Of a stretch of DNA of 64,000 nt, positions 13,489 to 24,324 are shown piece by piece. Numbering within the stretch: the first letter of the stretch is position 1; every line of letters starts with the position of its first letter. The notes beneath the pieces were generated by a model, which did not search any database, was not told the origin of the DNA, and saw nothing but the letters and a program-made list of their open reading frames with translations. Made by a program: the position numbers and the translations under genes. The stretch comes from Minisyncoccota bacterium (GTDB taxonomy: Bacteria; Patescibacteriota; Minisyncoccia; Phycocordibacterales; JABAAK01): contig OZ244141.1 in NCBI GenBank assembly GCA_965216295.1, forward strand, positions 365,299 to 429,298, written 5' to 3'.

Positions 13489-13572
13489 GCCGAGGTGGCG
13501 AAATTGGTAGACGCGTTGCGTTCAGAGCGCAATGGGAGTAATCCCGTGGAGGTTCAAGTCCTCTCCTCGGCA
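13489..13572 (+). tRNA. tRNA-Leu (anticodon CAG), class II with long variable arm
   Basis: GCCGAGGTGGCGAAATTGGTAGACGCGTTGCGTTCAGAGCGCAATGGGAGTAATCCCGTGGAGGTTCAAGTCCTCTCCTCGGCA. The acceptor pairs over 7 bp, the anticodon loop is TTCAGAG, and the variable arm is TGGGAGTAATCCCGTG. Confidence 0.85.
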
Positions 13573-13706
13573 CTAAAACAAATTTGATATCAAATAGTAT
13601 TTTTTGTTCTGTTTTCATTAAATTTTTATTATGATTGAATTTAGTCATATTTGCTCTTGATAACCATAGTGTATATAGAGTAAGATATATGTGCAATATA
13701 TAAAGT

Positions 13707-15449
13707 GTGAAAATTAGCATGACAGATATAAATCTACATCAAAAACAAAAAGGAGATAGAAATGAGTGTACTCGTCTAATTCTTGATTCGAGAACAAAAA
13801 ATAAGATAATAGTTGCTGGTCCAGGAACTGGCAAGAGCTTTACATTTCAAGAACTTTTGAAAACTAAAGGTAGAAACGGTCTCGCGCTTACTTTTACCAA
13901 TAATCTGGCACAAGATTTGGAAAAAGATCTTGGAACTTTGGCGAAATCATACACTTTTCACGGCTATTGTAAAAAACTTCTTCACAGAATTTCTGTAGAC
14001 GGTATAGATACTGATTTTCTTTATTATCCGAAGCTTTCTAAATTGATAAAATCGGACGCGATAATTATTGGAAATACTCTTGAAAAATTTGACGAAGCGT
14101 TTCATATACTAGCTAGGGACAGTCGCATTGAATTTTATCTTGAATGTGCAAATTACTATAACGCTGTTGGGCATAATGATGCCGTTTACCGTGTCCTCAA
14201 ATATTTTCAAACAAAAAAAGATTCTCTACCTTCATTCTCTCAAATAGTGGTGGACGAATATCAAGATTTCAATCAGCTCGAAGTTGCATTTATTGATGAA
14301 TTGGCAAAGACTAGCCCGATATTGATTGTTGGAGATGATGATCAAGCAATTTATAATTTTAAAAATGCATCGCCCGATCATATTCGTACTAAGTTCATTC
14401 ATGCAGATTTTGAAAAATTTGAACTACCTTATTGTAGTCGTTGCACAGAAGTAATTATTAGTTCTGTTCACGATGTTATAAAAAAAGCGAAAAGCATTGG
14501 GAAATTACAAAACAGAATTGAGAAAAATTATATTTGCTTTTTGCCCGACAAGGAAACTGATAACATAAAACATCCTCAAATTATTCACGCAAAATGTTCA
14601 GTACAAAATTCTCGTACACCTTATATTTCAAAATTTATAGAGCAGGAAATTAAAAAAATACCACAAATAGAAATTAATTGTGCGCGAGAAAAGGGTTTTC
14701 CGTGTGTTTTAATTGCTGGACCCTCACACTATACAAAACAAGTATATGACTATTTATTGGAAAATAATTTTAAAAATATTGACTATGTTGGCACAAAAAA
14801 ACAAAATGTTGAGTTTTTAGAAGGATATGAAGTTTTAATGCATAATAGGAACTCGAATCTTGGTTGGCGAATAATTTTAGAATGTTCAAGATTGACGGAT
14901 AAAACAGATATTATTAAAATGATGAACGGGTCAAAACAAAAATTAACTGATTTGCTCTCACCGGATTTTAAAGAAAAACATCTTGCTGTTGTTGCACTTC
15001 TCGCAAAACTAAAACTCAACGAAACATTGCTCGAATCAGAAATCCAAAAGTTACTTTCAGAATGTGGAAAACAAAAAATTCAGGAAATCAAGGAATTTCT
15101 AAATATTAATCTAGAAACAGAAAATGATGAGGAAACAATCGAAGACACAAATATTTCAATAAAAATTACAACAATAAGCGGTTCTAAAGGTTTATCAGCA
15201 AATTATGTTTTCCTCATTGGGATGAATAATAATGATTTTCCAAAAAACGATCAAAATCCAACAGACAATGAAATTTGCCAATTTATTGTTGGAATTACAC
15301 GAACAAGAAAAAAATGTTATTTGATATCAAATTTTCGTTTTGCAGGGGCTTCTAGAAAATCAAAATCAGTGTTCATTGATTGGATAAAAACGGAAAAAGT
15401 TGCTGAAGTAAATGTGAGTGCTAGTTTTTTCCAAAACCCTGCTCGTTAA
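13707..15449 (+). CDS. Minimal UvrD/Rep-like superfamily 1 DNA helicase
   Basis: 580 aa with these SF1 motifs: Walker A 'VAGPGTGKSFT', motif Ia 'TFTNNLAQDL', motif II 'VVDEYQDFN', motif III 'VGDDDQAIYNFKNA', motif V 'TISGSKGLSANYVFLIG', motif VI 'IVGITRTRKK'. No accessory nuclease domain is visible. Very AT-rich. It immediately follows tRNA-Leu. Confidence 0.7.
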   Translation: MKISMTDINLHQKQKGDRNECTRLILDSRTKNKIIVAGPGTGKSFTFQELLKTKGRNGLALTFTNNLAQDLEKDLGTLAKSYTFHGYCKKLLHRISVDGIDTDFLYYPKLSKLIKSDAIIIGNTLEKFDEAFHILARDSRIEFYLECANYYNAVGHNDAVYRVLKYFQTKKDSLPSFSQIVVDEYQDFNQLEVAFIDELAKTSPILIVGDDDQAIYNFKNASPDHIRTKFIHADFEKFELPYCSRCTEVIISSVHDVIKKAKSIGKLQNRIEKNYICFLPDKETDNIKHPQIIHAKCSVQNSRTPYISKFIEQEIKKIPQIEINCAREKGFPCVLIAGPSHYTKQVYDYLLENNFKNIDYVGTKKQNVEFLEGYEVLMHNRNSNLGWRIILECSRLTDKTDIIKMMNGSKQKLTDLLSPDFKEKHLAVVALLAKLKLNETLLESEIQKLLSECGKQKIQEIKEFLNINLETENDEETIEDTNISIKITTISGSKGLSANYVFLIGMNNNDFPKNDQNPTDNEICQFIVGITRTRKKCYLISNFRFAGASRKSKSVFIDWIKTEKVAEVNVSASFFQNPAR

Positions 15450-15543
15450 ATTTTTGCTTATTCAAAGTAAATCTTCACGAAGTGTATAACTATAGCACCA
15501 ATAAAACACGTATCGCATTTATTTTGTTATACTACAGCAACCT

Positions 15544-15771
15544 ATGACAGACGCCTCTATAAAAAAATCAAAGTATACATGTTCAAAATGTAAGCACTCA
15601 AAATATGAGTCAGGAGAAATAAGAGCAGCGGGTAGTTTTTGGACAAAAATCTTTAATATTCAAAATAAAAAATTTCTATCAATTTCGTGTAAAAAATGTG
15701 GCCATACAGAATTCTATTCTCAAGATAAAGCAAAAACCGTCGAAAACATTTTTGATTTCCTTATCGGTTAA
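15544..15771 (+). CDS. Zn-ribbon nucleic-acid-binding protein (DUF-type, CxxC...CxxC)
   Basis: 75 aa: 'YTCSKCKHSKYESGE...ISCKKCGHTEFY'. Two CxxC pairs with a C-terminal GHTEFY, typical of small predicted Zn-ribbon proteins. Confidence 0.55.
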   Translation: MTDASIKKSKYTCSKCKHSKYESGEIRAAGSFWTKIFNIQNKKFLSISCKKCGHTEFYSQDKAKTVENIFDFLIG

Positions 15772-16648: not shown

Positions 16649-17113
16649 TTACCCTCCAATTGATCGTTTTTGAATGTACTGCTGATGGTAATCTTCTGCC
16701 TCGTAGAAAGTGGTTGCCTTGGTAATCTCTGTCACAATACCAGCGGGATATACTCCTTGTTCTTCTAACCTCTTTTTTTCCTCTTCAGCAATTTGTTGTT
16801 CTTCTGGAGTAGTGTAGAAAATAGCGGAGCGATACTGTGTTCCTCTATCTGGTCCCTGCATATTAGGTGTTGTTGGATCGTGGATACTCCAAAAACGTTT
16901 TACGAGATCTTGATATGTTATCTGTTCTGAGTCATAGGTTACTTCAACCGCCTCTGCATGATTTGTGGTACCACTACAGACACCCTCATAACTAGGACTT
17001 TCTGTTGATCCACCAGTGTATCCAACTCGTGTTGATACAACACCAGGAGTGGTGCGGAACTTCTCTTCTACTCCCCAGAAGCATCCCGCGGCAAATATCG
17101 CAATTCCCTGCAT
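16649..17113 (-). CDS. msrA: Peptide methionine sulfoxide reductase MsrA
   Basis: 'AIFAAGCFWGVEEKF...GVVSTRVGYTGG' is the MsrA GCFWG active-site signature. Confidence 0.9.
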   Translation of the reverse strand: MQGIAIFAAGCFWGVEEKFRTTPGVVSTRVGYTGGSTESPSYEGVCSGTTNHAEAVEVTYDSEQITYQDLVKRFWSIHDPTTPNMQGPDRGTQYRSAIFYTTPEEQQIAEEEKKRLEEQGVYPAGIVTEITKATTFYEAEDYHQQYIQKRSIGG

Positions 17114-17136
17114 AATGGTAGTATATACACTATCTC

Positions 17137-17227
17137 GGAGGGGTGCCAGAGTGGTTGAATGGGGCGGTTTCGAAAACCGCTGTCATGCTTCATCGTGTGA
17201 CCGAGGGTTCGAATCCCTCCCCCTCCG
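17137..17227 (+). tRNA. tRNA-Ser (anticodon CGA), class II
   Basis: GGAGGGGTGCCAGAGTGGTTGAATGGGGCGGTTTCGAAAACCGCTGTCATGCTTCATCGTGTGACCGAGGGTTCGAATCCCTCCCCCTCCG. Acceptor GGAGGGG/CCCCTCC, anticodon loop TTCGAAA, long variable arm. Confidence 0.85.
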
Positions 17228-17442
17228 CATTGTAACCAAATGAGGGTTCAAAGTTACACTTTGCCTTCTGCATAAGCCGTTTTTCCAAAGAGTTCTTAAC
17301 CTAGATAAATCAATTTTTCTATGTCTTCAGCTTCTTAGTATCAATGTAGCGGTAAATGGTCATAATGTTGACTTGCAGGATGTCTGTTGTGTTTTTGACT
17401 TTATAGAAATCTCTAATATTCATAAGTATATGATACTTTACA

Positions 17443-18918
17443 ATGCTTTACATAGCAAATATATTGGTGAATAATATATATGTGAGATTTTCTAAACACT
17501 TCAAACTGAATAAAACACAAACAGAGCTGGACTTCGTAGATATTCCTCTGAAAACAGATATTCCTCTTTACATAGATCCTCATGTCATTGCGACACGTGA
17601 AGATTTGCTGTCAGTCAAATGCAACAACATCGTTGTCAACTTTTTTCAAACCGTTGTTACAAAAATAAAAAATGGTGATGATGAATTTGCGAAATATATG
17701 CTGAGTAAATTGAGAGAGCCCAACCAAACACATTTTGGACTTTCCAGCAAAGAGCCGAAAGGAAGGGGGGTGGGGGGTAAACAATCAATTGACATATACA
17801 AAAAATTCAAAGAAAGTGAGGCCATAAAAACTGGATTTCTGAAAGATCTTTCAGGGACAGAACTTGTGATTGAAGGTATTGGTAATGACAAGATTTCAGA
17901 TATGACTACGAATATAATAAAAAAAGATCTTATAGAATACACACAAAAACAATGTGACACATACGGCATACCAACAGAAAATGTTCCTGCAGAATTTTAT
18001 TGGAACCCGCAGAACCAAGAGTGGGAAAATGAATATGTTCAAATCCCTGTCTATGAAAACAGGTCCATAATTTTGGTACCCAAAGTGTTTGCGAGATACC
18101 AAATTCAATACAATCACCAACAGTATTACAACAAATTTGTTTTGGAGTATCTTCAGCAAGAGCATATTGATGCTAATTCTTCATTAGTGAAGCTTCTGAA
18201 AAATGGTGAGAAAAAAGTCTATAAAAAAGATTTGAAAAATGAAGAAGAATACAAATTGTCAAAAAAATTTCTATACGAATTCTCCAACGAGCATCCAGAG
18301 GTGCTGGAACAGTATACGAACTCAGTCTCAAGGGATATCAAACCTATTACGGACACCGAGATTGAAATTCGTCATCCTGAACCAAAGAAGATTGATTATT
18401 CGGAGCTGAAAGAAAAACTGCGCGCTATTCCAACAGGCAAGAAAGATGCTAGTAACTACCACAACGTTATGGTGGGTATACTTGAAGCTATATTTTCACC
18501 AAATTTATATGCACCAGCAAAAGAGGAAAAGATACACAATGGGCGAAAATTTATTGATATTATTTTCTTGAATGGTGCAAAAAAAGGGTTTTTTAAATAT
18601 ATTACAAATAACTTCCGTTTCCCTCAAATAATTTGTGAGTGCAAAAATTACACAGAGGACCCTGCAAATCCTGCATTTGACCAGCTTTCTGGTAGATTTT
18701 CCCCTAATAGAGGACAGTTTGGATTTTTGTTAGCACGAACATTTAAGAACAAAAATAAGGCTAAGCAACGCTGTAAAGATACTGCGAATGACCACCGTGG
18801 ATTTATTATTCCTCTGGACGATGCCGACATTATGCAGCTTATAGACTGGAAAAATAAAAATGACTTCCAGAAAATTGATGATTTTCTTACAAATCAATTT
18901 AGAGAACTAATTAACTAG
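17443..18918 (+). CDS. Hypothetical protein with C-terminal Mrr-cat-like PD-(D/E)xK restriction-endonuclease domain and unrecognised ~330-aa N-terminal domain
   Basis: C-terminal 'YHNVMVGILEAIF...GRKFIDIIFLNG...FPQIICECKNY...AFDQLSGRF...GQFGFLLARTFKN' parallels the Mrr_cat pattern (E.V..LL..G...GIDII...ILIQCKRY...V.EL.G....GIIVTT.FT). No motif found in residues 1-330. Strongly AT-rich. First gene after tRNA-Ser. Confidence 0.5.
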   Translation: MLYIANILVNNIYVRFSKHFKLNKTQTELDFVDIPLKTDIPLYIDPHVIATREDLLSVKCNNIVVNFFQTVVTKIKNGDDEFAKYMLSKLREPNQTHFGLSSKEPKGRGVGGKQSIDIYKKFKESEAIKTGFLKDLSGTELVIEGIGNDKISDMTTNIIKKDLIEYTQKQCDTYGIPTENVPAEFYWNPQNQEWENEYVQIPVYENRSIILVPKVFARYQIQYNHQQYYNKFVLEYLQQEHIDANSSLVKLLKNGEKKVYKKDLKNEEEYKLSKKFLYEFSNEHPEVLEQYTNSVSRDIKPITDTEIEIRHPEPKKIDYSELKEKLRAIPTGKKDASNYHNVMVGILEAIFSPNLYAPAKEEKIHNGRKFIDIIFLNGAKKGFFKYITNNFRFPQIICECKNYTEDPANPAFDQLSGRFSPNRGQFGFLLARTFKNKNKAKQRCKDTANDHRGFIIPLDDADIMQLIDWKNKNDFQKIDDFLTNQFRELIN

Positions 18919-19050
18919 ATTGAGTGTTGCCTTCTTCGCTGTTAGACTTGAAATGAAGTAGTAGTTTGAAAAGACAATCCAATGGATTCTAATATCGTCT
19001 TACTACTCTTCGTCAAAAAAGGTGTGTTTTAGTTTATAATATAAATAGAG

Positions 19051-19605
19051 ATGGAATATAACTATGTAAAGAAAAAATGGAGTACTGTTACCTTTATATA
19101 CAGAAAGGGTGATGAGAAATATATAGATAGTCTCAAAAAAGCAATTCAGGTGATAGAAACACTATCACCAAAGTTATACAAAAAGGATGTAAAAAAAATT
19201 AAGTATATATTGATATATAAGTCTAGTAAGTTAAACACATCTCTCGGGTATAAAGAACAAGGTCTGGTAGTGATTCCAATAAAAATGCTTGATAGCAGCT
19301 CATTGCTGTGGAATGCCGGTACCCTTGTACATGAAGCAAGACATATAACCCAACCGAAGAATAAAATGTGGGATTTCTACTGGTGTGAAATGAATGCTAC
19401 AAAAGGTGAGATGGAGTTTTATTCTGACTGTGAAGATAAGTATTACTATGATTTAGTAAATCCAAAAACAAAAAGAAAAAAGTATTTTGAAGAATTGAAA
19501 AAAAGACAGAAAGAAAAGTCCACCAAAAAGAATCCATATGTGCAATTGAAAAACACAGACAAGGATTGTAAAAAAATTGATGAGATAATTAAAAACTTGA
19601 TCTAA
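19051..19605 (+). CDS. Small HExxH (gluzincin-like) putative metallopeptidase/hypothetical protein
   Basis: 184 aa, Lys-rich. 'TLVHEARHITQ' plus a downstream Glu (…WCEMNATKGEMEF) gives HExxH+E spacing typical of minimal zincins. AT-rich. Confidence 0.35.
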   Translation: MEYNYVKKKWSTVTFIYRKGDEKYIDSLKKAIQVIETLSPKLYKKDVKKIKYILIYKSSKLNTSLGYKEQGLVVIPIKMLDSSSLLWNAGTLVHEARHITQPKNKMWDFYWCEMNATKGEMEFYSDCEDKYYYDLVNPKTKRKKYFEELKKRQKEKSTKKNPYVQLKNTDKDCKKIDEIIKNLI

Positions 19606-19658
19606 GCCTAATCTTCCTTTTGCAAATAAAAAAGTATATTCTGATACAATGTACTTAA

Positions 19659-20003
19659 ATGGAAAAAGTAAATATACAAAAAGTTTTAGATGAATTAAAA
19701 GAATTTAGAGATAAAAGAGATTGGAAGCAATTTCATACACTTAAAAATCTTATCTGTGGTTTAAATGTTGAAGCTGGAGAATTGCTAGAACATGTTATAT
19801 GGGAAGATTTAAAAGAACCAACAGATAAACAAAAGAAAGAAGTAGAGAAAGAATTAGCAGATGTTTTCAATTATGTTCTATTAATAGCTGATAAATTAGA
19901 TGTTAATTTAGAAAAGATTTCTATGCAAAAAATTAAAGAAAACGATATTAAATACCCTGTTGAGAAATCAAAAGGAAATAGTAAGAAATATAATGAATTA
20001 TAA
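19659..20003 (+). CDS. MazG-like nucleotide pyrophosphohydrolase (small all-alpha NTP-PPase, YpjD-like)
   Basis: 114 aa: 'LKEFRDKRDWKQFHTLKNLICGLNVEAGELLEHVIWE...EVEKELADVFNYVLLIADKLDVNLEK'. The EAGEL and ELADV metal-binding helices are those of MazG-family NTP-PPases. Confidence 0.65.
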   Translation: MEKVNIQKVLDELKEFRDKRDWKQFHTLKNLICGLNVEAGELLEHVIWEDLKEPTDKQKKEVEKELADVFNYVLLIADKLDVNLEKISMQKIKENDIKYPVEKSKGNSKKYNEL

Positions 20004-20008
20004 ATATC

Positions 20009-20317
20009 TTAAGAGATAAGATAATTTAATCCAAATGCAATACCTAAAAAAATGAAGATAACAATACCAAGTCTTAAATGTAATCCCATAGCTTGTTTAA
20101 ACCACACCCTCCATTTATTCTTATGCTGATATAAAAATATACAAAATCCCGTAAAATCCCAAATAAATACAAACAGGAGTGGGGTTATGGCAATATATGA
20201 AATTATTGTTATGGATGATTCTATCGAAAACGAATTGTCAGGATTTAACGAGGATACAATCACTAGAGCTGCTATAGGAAAAATAAATGTACTGAACTTG
20301 ATTGTGTTATTAAACAT
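20009..20317 (-). CDS. Small polytopic membrane hypothetical protein
   Basis: 102 aa with 3 predicted TM helices. No motif. Confidence 0.35.
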   Translation of the reverse strand: MFNNTIKFSTFIFPIAALVIVSSLNPDNSFSIESSITIISYIAITPLLFVFIWDFTGFCIFLYQHKNKWRVWFKQAMGLHLRLGIVIFIFLGIAFGLNYLIS

Positions 20318-20335
20318 ATAAATATCTTAAAATTT

Positions 20336-20734
20336 TTATCCCTCAGACTTAACTTTCTCTATAATCTCTATTAAATTAACCTGTGTGCTACTTTGATCAG
20401 CAGCAACATCTTCTTTTGGCAATAGAAACTTTTCAACTTCAAGCGTGTATGTATACCCTTCCTCATAATCAAACCCAAAAATAGAACCGTAAAAGTATTC
20501 ACCATTCACAATCATACATTTTTGTGGCGCAATACCAACACAATCCACAAGCTTTGGTCCAACCGTCACGGTTTCATAAGAAACTAAATCAAACTGTACT
20601 ACTTCACCTGATTTCGTTTGTACATAGATATCATCGTTGGTAAAGTTAAATTTGTAAATTCCTAACAGTATCACAATGATAGGTATTGCAAAGAGTAATG
20701 CAGCACAGTAAATAATGATTTTTTTGATTTTCAT
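20336..20734 (-). CDS. Membrane-anchored hypothetical protein (Cys-pair, possible DUF4377-like)
   Basis: 132 aa. N-terminal TM, then 'VDCVGIAPQKCMIVNGEYFYGSIFGFDYEEGYTY'. Family call uncertain. Confidence 0.35.
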   Translation of the reverse strand: MKIKKIIIYCAALLFAIPIIVILLGIYKFNFTNDDIYVQTKSGEVVQFDLVSYETVTVGPKLVDCVGIAPQKCMIVNGEYFYGSIFGFDYEEGYTYTLEVEKFLLPKEDVAADQSSTQVNLIEIIEKVKSEG

Positions 20735-20769
20735 TCTTTACATGCAACTGACAATTCACTCAATGCCCT

Positions 20770-21294
20770 CTACTGTACCGGTTCAAATTGTAGTGGTTTA
20801 AAAACAGAAAAATTATAAATCAATTCAGTTGATACAGATGGTGTTTGTGAAAATGGTTCATCTTCATTTCTGTCTAAGTATGAGATAGATACCTTTCCTG
20901 TGATAGGAGTAAATACTATACTCTCAGGAATAATGCGATCACCAACAAAGACACTTTGACCACCGAGGTAACGATTAATTCTTTTACTATAAACAGCGTG
21001 ACTAACATGATAAAAGGTACCAGAACCACCAGTATTTTCTGCAAGCCATACAAAATAACACTTTTCACATTCTTGAGATGGTGTCGTGCTCACTAAAGTA
21101 ACCCGAATCCTTCCTTCATTACCAACAAACTCACCGTCCGTTAGTTGATACTGTTCAATTGATCCACCAGAAATAGAGGTGTAATAAAGACCATTTGCAG
21201 GAGTTGGATTAATCGTATCTTTCAAAACAAAAAGCACAATACCAATGAGGGCAACGACAACGACGACGACGACAATATTCAAGCTTTTATTCAT
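20770..21294 (-). CDS. Membrane-anchored extracellular hypothetical protein
   Basis: Start placed at internal Met (MNKSLNIVVVVVVVALIGIVLFVL), which gives a signal-anchor. Rest is Thr/Ser-rich with a CxxC (QECEKC). Confidence 0.4.
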   Translation of the reverse strand: MNKSLNIVVVVVVVALIGIVLFVLKDTINPTPANGLYYTSISGGSIEQYQLTDGEFVGNEGRIRVTLVSTTPSQECEKCYFVWLAENTGGSGTFYHVSHAVYSKRINRYLGGQSVFVGDRIIPESIVFTPITGKVSISYLDRNEDEPFSQTPSVSTELIYNFSVFKPLQFEPVQ

Positions 21295-21465
21295 AGTGAT
21301 AGTATAGCATGGGTAGAGGAATAAAGAGGAAATATATATAATAAAAGACAAAACCCCCAAAAAGTCTTAATTACTATACCTCTATACCTTTATATGCTAC
21401 ACTACGTATGGTTTCTGTCATATTTTTGACAGGTTTATTGTACAAAACATAGGAGGATACATATT

Positions 21466-21870
21466 GTGTCTAGATATCCAAATTTTAAACGCACAAGCGT
21501 TAACAGAATGCTTAGAACTGAATCCTCAGGAGGTTTGTTACTTATAGCAACTCCTGAAAGAAAAATGCCTAATAAGAAGGCGTTACGTCAGTTATTCAAG
21601 ACTGTTGTCGAGTGTATGAATGCTAGCTATAAAATAGCTTATCCAGAAGTGTACTCACCCATGCTTTTAAAAAACACTGATGTAAATTGGTGGCTGCAAG
21701 TCTCTTTACCATTGATGAGTCCAGAGATGGTGCTCCAATTTAAAAAGATATTCAGTGAAGAAATAGCAAAAAGGGTGTCTCAGGATGAATTACTTAACTC
21801 TGGAGGAAAATATATGTGCTTTGACAACAGAGTGTACGAATATATTGATAAGGAGTGGTGGCGAAGATAA
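21466..21870 (+). CDS. Hypothetical protein
   Basis: 134-aa ORF followed by a rho-independent terminator. No motif recognised. Confidence 0.3.
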   Translation: MSRYPNFKRTSVNRMLRTESSGGLLLIATPERKMPNKKALRQLFKTVVECMNASYKIAYPEVYSPMLLKNTDVNWWLQVSLPLMSPEMVLQFKKIFSEEIAKRVSQDELLNSGGKYMCFDNRVYEYIDKEWWRR

Positions 21871-21909
21871 TAAGTGTGTTTGAAGGATTCTTCAGATGCA
21901 CATAGAACT

Positions 21910-21947
21910 CACGTAGTATGGCGGGCAATACTGCGTGGGTTTTTTTT
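21910..21947 (+). terminator. Rho-independent terminator (hairpin + T-run) after hypothetical gene
   Basis: ACGTAGTAT-GGCGGGCA-ATACTGCGT imperfect inverted repeat followed by TTTTTTTT (21939-21947). It overlaps the 3' end of the convergent leuS. Confidence 0.5.
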
Positions 21948-24324
21948 ACCTTTTTTTGGAAGAGAAACTAATCAAAGTATTAGGAAGAAAAGCAGAAACT
22001 GTCATATCTTCTGAAAAGTATTTTTTCAACTTTTCACTTTCACGAACGAGAGAGAGGATTGTTCCCTGAGATGTATCTGGTGCCACGGTGAGACGATCAC
22101 GCACTTTGCCATTAATTTGTACAACCACAACTACTTCCTCTTCATGCAACTCCTGAGTATCTTCTTGTGGCCAAGTACTGTTCTGTATTGAATCAGTATG
22201 TTTGAGTGCCCCATTCCATATCTCTTCTGAAAGAACAGGAGCAAATGGTGCTAACAATTGAATAAATGTTTCATAAACTTTTCGAGACGGTTCTTTCTCA
22301 AGTGCTTTTAAAAGAATCATAAGAGCGCTCACTGCAGTATTCAAACGAAATGTTTCAATATCTCTACCTACCTGTTGTATCGTTTTCTTTTGTAACTGTT
22401 GCAACGTCTTCCCTGGTTCTTGATCTATCAACTTTTCAGACAATAGATGGATTCTTTCCAAGAAACGAATAACACCAGGAATATCAGTATCAGACCAACT
22501 TACCCGTTGAGAAAATGGTGCAATGAAAGCGACAAAGAGACGAGTAGCGTCAACACCATGACGTTTGGCAAATGCAAGAGGGTCAACAACGTTACCTAAC
22601 CGTTTACTCATCTTTTTACCATCATGTGCATGAACAATTCCAACAGTCTCAAGGCGAGTAAATGGTTCCTTGGTAGAAACTAATTTTTCATCATAAAGAA
22701 ATTTATGCCAAAATCGAGCATAAATCAAATGACGAGTCGCATGTTCAATACCGCCGATATAGATATCAACAGGCATCCACTCCTTTTCACGATTCGCATC
22801 AAGAAAAGCCTCTTTATTATGAGGGTCAATATATCGTAGATAGTACCAACAGGAACCTGCCCACTGTGGCATGGTGTTGGTTTCTCGCTTCCCACTACCA
22901 CCACAGGAAGGACATGGTACATTCACCCAGTCTTCCATAGCAGCAAGTGGTGATTCTCCTGTTCCAGTCGGTTCATATGATGCTATCTCTGGCAAAGTAA
23001 TCGGTAGTTCAGATTCTGGTACTGGAACAACACCACAGTCTTTGCAGTGAATCAGAGGAATTGGTTCACCCCAATAACGCTGTCGAGAAAATACCCAATC
23101 CTGGAGACGATACGTCACCGCACGCTCTCCTCCTGCTTTCTTGGTGATAGCGGGTTGTGCCTCGGCAACAGTCATACCATCAAACTCACCTGAGTTGATA
23201 AGAGTGCCTTCGTGTGCTTCATACGGCACTACTTGTTCCCCAGCAATAGTAGCAATGACTGGTAAATGAAACACATCTGCAAATGCAAAGTCTCGGTGAT
23301 CGTGTGCAGGAACTCCAAAAATAGCACCCGTCCCATAACTTGTGGTGACATAGTTGGCAACGAAGATAGGGATTTTTTCTTTCGTCAATGGATGTATAGC
23401 GTGTATTCCCTTCAGCTGTATTCCACTTTTCTCTTGTTCATGTGTGCGTGTAGCAATCTGTTTTCTAAATTGTAATTCTTGGTATGTCTGCACTTCATCT
23501 TTATTCTCAACATGTGTAAGAAGTTTTGAAAGACCTCGGTATTCTGGTGAGAGTGCAAGAAAAGAACAACCAAACAGTGTGTCTGGTCGTGTAGTAAAGA
23601 CAACAATTGGAGAAGAACCAGCAGAAAGAGTAAATGAGATATGGTACCCCTCACCTTTACCAATCCATGCACGTTGGAGATCTTTCACAACATCTGACCA
23701 CTCTGGGAGTGTATCGAGGTCAGAGAGGAGCCGTTCAGCATAATCGGTAATACGAAGAACCCATTGACGAATTACTTTTCTCTCTACAGGCGTACCACAC
23801 CGCTCACAACAATCCTCATCAAGATCTTCATTGGCAAGTCCTGTTTTACAATCTGGACACCAGTTGATAGGTTCATTGGATTCATACACTAAACCTTTTT
23901 TAAAGAATTGAAGGAAAATCCATTGCGTCCAGGTGTAATATGAGCTGTCAGTAGTTGCAATTTCTCGCTCCCAGTCAAAAGCAAAGGCAAGATGTTGCAT
24001 TTGATTTCGAAACGTATCAGTATTTTTTTTTACCACAACACTCGGATGTACCTTGTTTTTGATAGCAAAGAGTTCTGCAGGAAGTCCAAACGCATCCCAC
24101 CCCATTGGCTGCAATACTCGTTCCCCACACATTCGTCGATATCGACCATAAATATCAGTTGCATTGTAGGTGCGAACATGTCCCATATGGAGACCAGAAC
24201 CTGAAGGATACGGAAACATGGTAAGGACATAGCGTTTTGGGGCACTTCCTTGTGGGGTACGGTATGATTTCTCTTTCAGCCATCGTTTCCGCCACTTCTC
24301 CTCAAGGGCATGAAAATCGTACAT
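21946..24324 (-). CDS. leuS: Leucyl-tRNA synthetase
   Basis: 792 aa. 'PYPSGSGLHMGHV' HIGH motif, 'KMSKRLGNVV' KMSKS motif, CP1 editing domain, full-length. Confidence 0.95.
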   Translation of the reverse strand: MYDFHALEEKWRKRWLKEKSYRTPQGSAPKRYVLTMFPYPSGSGLHMGHVRTYNATDIYGRYRRMCGERVLQPMGWDAFGLPAELFAIKNKVHPSVVVKKNTDTFRNQMQHLAFAFDWEREIATTDSSYYTWTQWIFLQFFKKGLVYESNEPINWCPDCKTGLANEDLDEDCCERCGTPVERKVIRQWVLRITDYAERLLSDLDTLPEWSDVVKDLQRAWIGKGEGYHISFTLSAGSSPIVVFTTRPDTLFGCSFLALSPEYRGLSKLLTHVENKDEVQTYQELQFRKQIATRTHEQEKSGIQLKGIHAIHPLTKEKIPIFVANYVTTSYGTGAIFGVPAHDHRDFAFADVFHLPVIATIAGEQVVPYEAHEGTLINSGEFDGMTVAEAQPAITKKAGGERAVTYRLQDWVFSRQRYWGEPIPLIHCKDCGVVPVPESELPITLPEIASYEPTGTGESPLAAMEDWVNVPCPSCGGSGKRETNTMPQWAGSCWYYLRYIDPHNKEAFLDANREKEWMPVDIYIGGIEHATRHLIYARFWHKFLYDEKLVSTKEPFTRLETVGIVHAHDGKKMSKRLGNVVDPLAFAKRHGVDATRLFVAFIAPFSQRVSWSDTDIPGVIRFLERIHLLSEKLIDQEPGKTLQQLQKKTIQQVGRDIETFRLNTAVSALMILLKALEKEPSRKVYETFIQLLAPFAPVLSEEIWNGALKHTDSIQNSTWPQEDTQELHEEEVVVVVQINGKVRDRLTVAPDTSQGTILSLVRESEKLKKYFSEDMTVSAFLPNTLISFSSKKR

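Follow-up and report, generated by a model that had tools for sequence, protein, structure and literature searches.

Two of the described systems closest to the locus considered here serve as background. The PDCs are 145 explicitly untested defence candidates, predicted through 'guilt-by-embedding' within BREX, DISARM or type I restriction–modification (R-M) systems; one of them, PDC-M36, is a three-gene cassette (FAM_01399>>FAM_00303>>FAM_00303), for which the supplement gives no FAM identities (Payne et al. 2024, 10.1101/2024.01.29.577857). The Nhi and Nhi-like proteins, in which a nuclease-like N-terminus is combined with a DUF2075 SF1 helicase, are validated anti-phage proteins. The locus that we compare with them lies in a 64,000-nucleotide stretch of DNA from a Minisyncoccota bacterium (GenBank assembly GCA_965216295.1, contig OZ244141.1, positions 365,299 to 429,298 of the forward strand), referred to as the window, whose own numbering is used for the features listed below. 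Here, three co-directional plus-strand genes follow a tRNA-Ser gene with anticodon CGA, an arrangement described in an earlier note on this DNA and borne out by ARAGORN and the open reading frames (ORFs). The note put the trio forward as a candidate undescribed defence system. Our analysis leads to a different picture: the region is probably a small variable islet next to the tRNA-Ser gene, holding three independently acquired genes, and the first of these encodes a member of a large, conserved family of predicted two-domain nucleases. The relevant features are as follows:

17137..17228, plus strand: tRNA-Ser (anticodon CGA), located with ARAGORN; left border of the low-GC stretch
17482..18918, plus strand: gene 1 (product p1), predicted two-domain nuclease of the DUF8370/PDC-M36A family, 478 amino acids from the GTG at 17482; the longer ORF, 17443-18918, starts at ATG 17443 and encodes 491 amino acids
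17482..18396, plus strand: N-terminal domain of p1, residues 14-318, an autonomous module
17854..17922, plus strand: helix-hairpin-helix-like (HhH-like) motif GTELVIEGIGNDKISDMTTNIIK, residues 138-160, the most conserved stretch of the DUF8370 family
18400..18915, plus strand: C-terminal FokI/Mrr-like PD-(D/E)xK nuclease domain of p1, residues 320-491; D372 codon at 18556-18558, E399-C-K401 codons at 18637-18645
19051..19605, plus strand: gene 2 (product p2), 184-residue HExxH protein, lineage-restricted, from the ORF
19659..20003, plus strand: gene 3 (product p3), predicted MazG-like/DCTPP1-type nucleoside triphosphate (NTP) pyrophosphohydrolase of 114 residues, from the ORF and Pfam PF12643

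Residues of gene 1 are numbered in the 491-residue frame. Codon 14 of this ORF is the GTG at 17482, from which translation begins MRFSKHF; because this fits both the N-termini (MRFSxxF) and the lengths (476–490 residues) of the homologues, the protein most likely has 478 residues. It is matched by the PDC-M36A models of PADLOC (PDLC04597, 1.1e-55; PDLC04598, 3.7e-21) and, end to end, by phrog_27295 (1.1e-112; residues 15–490 against profile positions 2–469 of 469), and the Pfam family PF28123 (DUF8370) is precomputed both for a protein identical to the gene 1 product and for 120 of the 120 listed homologues. More than 700 homologues are present in the protein database, essentially all of them full length (476–490 residues), and their hosts are distributed over the Patescibacteria/Candidate Phyla Radiation (CPR), Proteobacteria, Acidobacteriota, Chloroflexota, Clostridia, Planctomycetes and other phyla. 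Mean column identity is 55–61% across both domains, and the catalytic residues, D372 and E399-C-K401, are invariant in 77 homologues. As judged by these matches, gene 1 is a DUF8370 member in a Patescibacteria-type genome, and its family has already been catalogued as a phage-defence candidate; given its presence in both PADLOC and Pfam, the word 'undescribed' in the earlier note has to be withdrawn for this gene. The note had also taken the protein for a fusion of an unrecognized region, perhaps a sensor, to a nuclease effector: the two domains and the effector stand, whereas the idea of an orphan fusion does not, the whole protein being a full-length member of the family. Literature searches on PDC-M36, PF28123 and DUF8370 found no functional mention.

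The C-terminal domain conforms to the FokI/Mrr-like branch of the PD-(D/E)xK nucleases, with an alpha-beta core, the aspartate on β2 and the (D/E)xK motif on β3, and the nuclease assignment rests on this motif together with the structure. It had been labelled an Mrr-cat-type PD-(D/E)xK domain, of which only the latter part can be kept: Pfam Mrr_cat (PF04471) does not match gene 1, and no Pfam family does so at E ≤ 0.1 in a copy of Pfam that lacks PF28123. Gene 1 thereby differs from Mrr and the type IV restriction enzymes, and also in that no known modification-reader domain was recognized in it by Pfam, NCBIfam or a fold search. It departs equally from FokI and BspD6I, the type IIS enzymes: a cognate methyltransferase is lacking in the window and in most DUF8370 loci, the N-terminal part is unrelated to the recognition domains of FokI, and the family is unusually conserved across phyla, at 45–60% identity. 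Recognition of a specific sequence, in the manner of type II enzymes, is made less likely by this conservation. With regard to methylation, no methyltransferase was found in the segment from 13.7 to 24.3 kb of the window, and methylases or R-M fusion enzymes make up only about 6 of the 54 immediate neighbours of the gene 1 homologues.

For the N-terminal domain, of ∼300 residues, the PDB offers no structural relative. Stand-alone versions of it, proteins of 302–345 residues annotated 'hypothetical protein', were located by tblastn on more than 90 plasmids, some of them tiny; 48 are Staphylococcus plasmids, and Bacillus, Acinetobacter, Rhodococcus and Listeria are also represented. These proteins span the entire N-domain profile. 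Copies include the following, where loci outside the window are designated by L and a number and carry their own coordinates:

L092, 3992-4906: stand-alone N-domain
L093, 2500-3456: stand-alone N-domain
L095, 3983-4894: stand-alone N-domain of Staphylococcus aureus Mu50 VRSAp, WP_000176962.1
L096, 3956-4864: stand-alone N-domain
L097, 3989-5026: stand-alone N-domain

Even in the plasmid versions, at 20–29% identity, D39, D45-P46, E92, G99, G107, G109, D149, D153, W194, P213 and E240 are invariant; such conservation suggests a pocket for binding or catalysis as opposed to a variable 'sensor'. A split architecture, in which the plasmid N-domain would be accompanied by a separate p1-type nuclease, was also considered, and a profile search found no such nuclease nearby.

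The genetic context of the family was assessed in 100 loci with a gene 1 homologue: 80 genomic loci with 10-kb flanks, the 4 closest metagenomic relatives (75–79% identity), 15 viral loci and 1 plasmid locus. When 879 neighbour ORFs were clustered by BLAST, the largest cluster reached no more than 6 of the 80 loci, and among the 54 immediate same-strand neighbours each Pfam or PADLOC family was seen three times at most. With no neighbour family more frequent than this, DUF8370 has no obligate partner. Gene 1 resembles PDC-M36 (DUF8370/phrog_27295) in matching over its full length and in belonging to a family that is habitually found inside type I R-M systems; it differs in that the full cassette is absent, and genes 2 and 3 match no PADLOC model at E ≤ 0.1. 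The partner families of PDC-M36 are likewise absent from the top of the PADLOC count displayed for the 54 immediate neighbours, and because they were not found, gene 1 is regarded as a solitary 'A' gene.

Defence genes are nonetheless found around the homologues. The homologues lie inside or adjoin type I R-M (HsdR, HsdM, HsdS) in L007, L011, L030 and L039; HerA is close by in 4 loci and an Nhi-like gene in 7, and a search with no more than ten reference proteins placed a defence gene within 5 kb of the homologue in at least 14 of the 80 loci. A full-length plasmid copy, on Bacillus mycoides p419 (L094, NZ_CP036030.1 120123-133493), is accompanied by Gabija, a site-specific integrase and McrB-McrC, in the order Gabija, DUF8370 gene, integrase, McrB-McrC; this Gabija is complete (GajA 5.6e-206, GajB 3.1e-155). 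Additionally, a tyrosine or serine recombinase occurs near the homologue in 6 of the 80 loci, and in the majority of cases the locus is chromosomal and lacks mobility genes within 5 kb. GenBank phages gave no match to p1, and IMG/VR gave 15 viral contigs with p1 homologues, near integrases or recombinases.

In gene 2, the HEARH motif is encoded at 19330-19344, and the codon for Glu113 falls within 19378-19404. The HExxH motif and additional glutamate claimed for this protein are upheld by H94, E95, H98 and E113, which are invariant in all five sequences of its family, down to 35% identity, and on account of this invariance p2 is probably a real small metallohydrolase. It shares the HExxH motif and downstream glutamate with the small zincins (DUF6782, MXAN_6640_HExxH and the YgjP/WLM/SprT-like proteins), but its scores are far below their cut-offs (DUF6782, 14.8 bits against 27; MXAN_6640_HExxH, 15.9 against 140); no curated family was reached and no PDB relative was found. 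A word-based search gave two relatives, and an exhaustive HMMER search over 1.84 billion (1.84e9) representatives gave three matches besides p2 itself: two added new members to the family, and the third, a repetitive protein of 1125 residues with 17% identity, was kept out. The five known members all reside in CPR-like metagenome contigs. Of the four relatives, one is placed between CorA and CTP synthase, one after Fic, one between a Zn-ribbon and a T5orf172 gene and one after Peptidase_S9, and genes 1 and 3 are absent from all of these places. Gene 2 probably encodes an orphan HExxH protein that is confined to its lineage, lacks a conserved partner and is putatively a small metallohydrolase.

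Several further observations concern the surroundings of this family. One relative, P0123 (L082 8815-10549), begins 12 bp after a Fic/SoFic-like pair, with a helix-turn-helix gene and SocA_Panacea a few kilobases upstream, which suggests a neighbourhood with a toxin–antitoxin or defence flavour. A second, P0244 (L089 5754-6585, L090 950-1781), has a divergent Zn_ribbon_13 gene at a distance of 35 bp, and in the window too a Zn_ribbon_13 gene (15544-15771) precedes gene 2, by 3.3 kb; the two cases may point to a weak association that recurs, or be coincidental. On each of the contigs of P0244 and P0245 (L089/L090 and L091), the gene and its neighbours are present twice in inverted orientation, whether through a genuine duplication or through misassembly. 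Lastly, a different HExxH protein, a YgjP-like metallopeptidase (PF01863, 2.8e-52), lies 14 bp upstream of the DUF8370 homologue in a Moraniibacteriota genome (L004 9306-10004). It has no sequence similarity to gene 2; YgjP-like peptidases usually accompany type I R-M.

The assignment of gene 3 as MazG-like is confirmed by Pfam PF12643 (52.8 bits, cut-off 27; 4.7e-14) and by matches to solved structures of the DCTPP1/RS21-C6 type (PDB 4qgp, 1.5e-17; DCTPP1, 4.7e-14). As in these enzymes, the acidic ExxE and ExxD motifs are kept, as EAGE (residues 38–41) and ELAD (residues 65–68); unlike them, the protein has only 114 residues and no fused domain. The MazG-like profile matches 5 of the 100 loci with a p1 homologue (L024, L027, L036, L075 and L076), and in all five the MazG-like gene adjoins that of a DUF2075/SLFN-g3 helicase protein of 616–795 residues, in which a nuclease-like N-terminal region is combined with PF09848 (2e-103). 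The same order, MazG-like followed by DUF2075, is seen around independent relatives of gene 3 with no DUF8370 nearby (L083/L084 and L087/L088), where the MazG-like gene lies directly upstream of the Nhi-like gene with a 2-bp gap or a 4-bp overlap. The pairs are located as follows:

L083/L084, 5001-7050: MazG-like/Nhi-like pair
L087/L088, 5001-7513: MazG-like/Nhi-like pair
L024, 3657-5948: MazG-like/Nhi-like pair
L027, 11460-13746: MazG-like/Nhi-like pair
L036, 7243-9980: MazG-like/Nhi-like pair
L075, 11559-14308: MazG-like/Nhi-like pair
L076, 7762-9971: MazG-like/Nhi-like pair

In this usual arrangement of the family, the two genes are probably co-translated. The MazG-like companion of Nhi-like is in no PADLOC model, and no paper was found that treats DUF2075 and MazG together. 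A protein of 484 residues that overlaps the MazG gene in L085 was considered as a divergent p1 homologue and proved unrelated by BLASTP and PADLOC. By family, then, gene 3 belongs with the MazG-like genes upstream of Nhi and Nhi-like, but the module in the window is incomplete: it contains no DUF2075 gene or remnant, and tblastn with six DUF2075 proteins gave only P-loop noise (E ≥ 0.04). From its sequence and structural matches, gene 3 is a predicted DCTPP1-like deoxynucleoside triphosphate (dNTP) pyrophosphohydrolase without its usual Nhi-like partner, and it stands alone here either as the remnant of a MazG/Nhi-like module or as a free-standing house-cleaning enzyme.

The layout and composition of the locus provide a further view of the trio. 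The probable start of gene 1 is 253 bp downstream of tRNA-Ser, and the intergenic gaps are 132 bp (genes 1 and 2) and 53 bp (genes 2 and 3); they are short, as claimed, and each is one base pair less than the 133 and 54 bp originally given. Along the sequence, the G+C content (GC) falls from about 0.44–0.46 in msrAB and the tRNA to 0.25–0.36 across the three genes, with a step from 0.46 to 0.33 immediately 3' of tRNA-Ser; the total GC of genes 1, 2 and 3 is 0.35, 0.31 and 0.24, respectively, and that of the flanks 0.42–0.44. At third codon positions (GC3), p1 and p2 both have 0.34 and p3 has 0.13, as compared with 0.30–0.32 for msrA, msrB and leuS. The more AT-rich codon usage attributed to all three genes is therefore true of gene 3 only, genes 1 and 2 being the same as or above the flanks, and as the low GC3 is confined to gene 3 the trio lacks a common compositional signature. 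The value for gene 3 suggests a separate, probably more recent, acquisition.

The earlier suggestion of horizontal acquisition at a tRNA hot spot finds no support in the usual marks of integration. No integrase ORF was found between 13.7 and 24.3 kb of the window (ORFs, Pfam), and no att-type copy of the 3' end of tRNA-Ser in 17100-22000, where only short AT-rich chance repeats occur; the locus thus lacks both marks of a tRNA-integrated genomic island, an integrase and a tRNA 3' repeat at the far border. Among the homologue loci, adjacency to a tRNA is occasional (within 300 bp in 2 of 60). A promoter and terminator scan found no terminator-like sites between the three genes, and its promoter part was uninformative, promoter-like sites being fewer than in shuffled sequence. 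The three genes may be co-transcribed here, but incidentally so.

Could the trio nevertheless be one system? A genuine lineage-specific defence system of three components, with a nuclease effector, a zincin regulator and an NTP-depleting MazG, would account for the shared direction, the short gaps free of terminator-like sites, the intact catalytic-type motifs in all three products and the low-GC stretch at a tRNA. We consider it highly improbable, however: the p2 profile matches in 0 of the 100 p1 loci, even those of the 75–79% identical relatives, and the three families occur together in none of the 100. Since it is not conserved as a unit in other loci, the trio is not one system. Moreover, the relatives of p2 sit in unrelated contexts without p1 or MazG, the regular partner of the MazG family is DUF2075 and not p1 or p2, p3 differs in GC3, and the PADLOC models match neither p2 nor p3. 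That the three genes stand together is an accident of a single genome. The earlier note had itself named lack of conservation of the trio as grounds for abandoning its proposal, and its more cautious alternative of three unrelated cargo genes describes the locus better, the trio being unlinked elsewhere. The defence flavour that it detected persists gene by gene, in the defence-island habit of gene 1 and the position of the gene 3 family beside Nhi-like, and not in a joint system. A looser association, which we also think unlikely, would couple only gene 1 and the MazG-like gene, such that DUF8370 nucleases work together with the MazG-like/Nhi-like module: modified dNTPs might, for instance, be removed by a dCTPase-type enzyme while the nucleases attack DNA, and the window would represent a degraded version that has lost Nhi-like and received gene 2 as an insertion between the two genes. 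The MazG-like gene does lie directly downstream of the p1 homologue in L024 and L027 (gaps of 12–13 bp) and L075 (109 bp), MazG-Nhi-like is directly upstream in L036, Nhi-like is 14 bp upstream in L053, and L076, a CPR relative, has the pair within 5 kb on the opposite strand; together, about 6–9% of loci are involved, against a rough estimate of <1% for a random gene. Conversely, at least 91% of the p1 loci are without both genes, the pair occurs without p1 in L083/L084 and L087/L088, the window holds no DUF2075 remnant, and the GC3 of p3 is unlike that of p1. Order and orientation also vary, which fits co-residence in islands and not an operon.

With its neighbours set aside, gene 1 is left with a two-domain architecture, an intact FokI/Mrr-like catalytic site, no obligate partner and a family that is found in defence islands and embedded in R-M. 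Within the overall picture of an islet, we think it probable that its product cleaves DNA as a solitary endonuclease of the restriction or defence type and needs no methyltransferase. Such a protein would act singly against foreign DNA: the N-domain would bind DNA via its HhH-like element, the invariant acidic and glycine-rich pocket would recognize, or act on, a generic feature of the invading DNA, and the tethered FokI-like domain (D372/E399/K401) would then cut, probably after dimerizing as FokI-type domains do. A non-immune role in the DNA processing of mobile elements (plasmid or prophage maintenance, recombination or the exclusion of competitors), with the N-domain as the primary activity and the nuclease as an accessory, seems improbable to us. 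It would be in keeping with the many stand-alone copies, those on tiny and Staphylococcus plasmids included, with an invariant acidic cluster suggestive of catalysis, with the 15 viral contigs near integrases or recombinases, with the possession of a PHROG of its own and with the recombinases near 6 of 80 loci; against it, there are full-length members inside type I R-M operons and between Gabija and McrBC, a FokI/Mrr-type domain is typical of restriction enzymes, and most loci lie on chromosomes, away from mobility genes. The interpretation of gene 1 as a solitary defence nuclease, and of its neighbours as incidental, is opposed by a number of points. The literature holds no experiment on any DUF8370 or PDC-M36 protein, a defence role would be attributed through guilt by association only, and many homologues are found among housekeeping genes (RNR, SDR, P450, SIS). 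The N-domain alone, on more than 90 plasmids, could have a function in plasmid biology instead of defence. Furthermore, p1 and MazG-like genes are neighbours in about five independent lineages, the window included, which is above chance and therefore makes some functional synergy possible, and the three co-directional, closely spaced genes might share a transcript.

A bolder proposal, which we offer as doubtful, is that DUF8370 nucleases constitute a new and widespread class of restriction or defence proteins that act singly. A novel N-terminal fold, with its invariant D/E cluster, Gly-rich loop and HhH, would itself be an enzyme, or would sense some generic feature of the invading DNA, and would license FokI-type cleavage without a methyltransferase; the stand-alone N-domains on plasmids of Staphylococcus, Bacillus and Acinetobacter would then represent a related activity without an effector, for example inhibition, a decoy function or DNA modification in its own right.

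Beyond the trio, the low-GC stretch (0.29–0.37) runs on over 20009-21870 of the window, up to leuS at 21946, and the variable region therefore exceeds the extent first assigned to it. It holds three small membrane or secreted proteins on the minus strand, one of them a DUF4377 protein, and a plus-strand ORF of 134 residues. An exact 14-nt direct repeat, TATAAATATCTTAA, at 19999-20012 and 20317-20330, flanks the first ORF after gene 3 and overlaps the gene 3 stop; by rough estimate, a few such repeats would occur by chance in equally AT-rich DNA. A second low-GC islet, spanning 13489-15771, follows directly on another tRNA gene and contains a UvrD/GajB-like helicase with no GajA partner. The features of these two regions are:

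20009-20317, minus strand: membrane protein of 102 residues, next after gene 3, from the ORF
13489-13573: tRNA-Leu (CAG)
13707-15449: UvrD/GajB-like helicase of 580 residues (PADLOC GajB, 2e-28; GC 0.32, GC3 0.22)
15544-15771: Zn_ribbon_13 (DUF2082) protein of 75 residues, after the helicase

The lasting value of this locus is in the family of gene 1, which is large, spread over many phyla and highly conserved, and whose N-domain is also found on clinical Staphylococcus plasmids. The tight succession of MazG-like and Nhi-like genes suggests, in addition, that a dNTP pyrophosphohydrolase is an unrecognized accessory of a validated defence protein. The small genomes of Patescibacteria are thought to be poor in defences; if gene 1 is an autonomous restriction enzyme, it would add one more defence gene to those of this group, and its N-domain would be a new addition to the few recognition modules that are known to drive FokI-like nucleases, which may be useful for tools.

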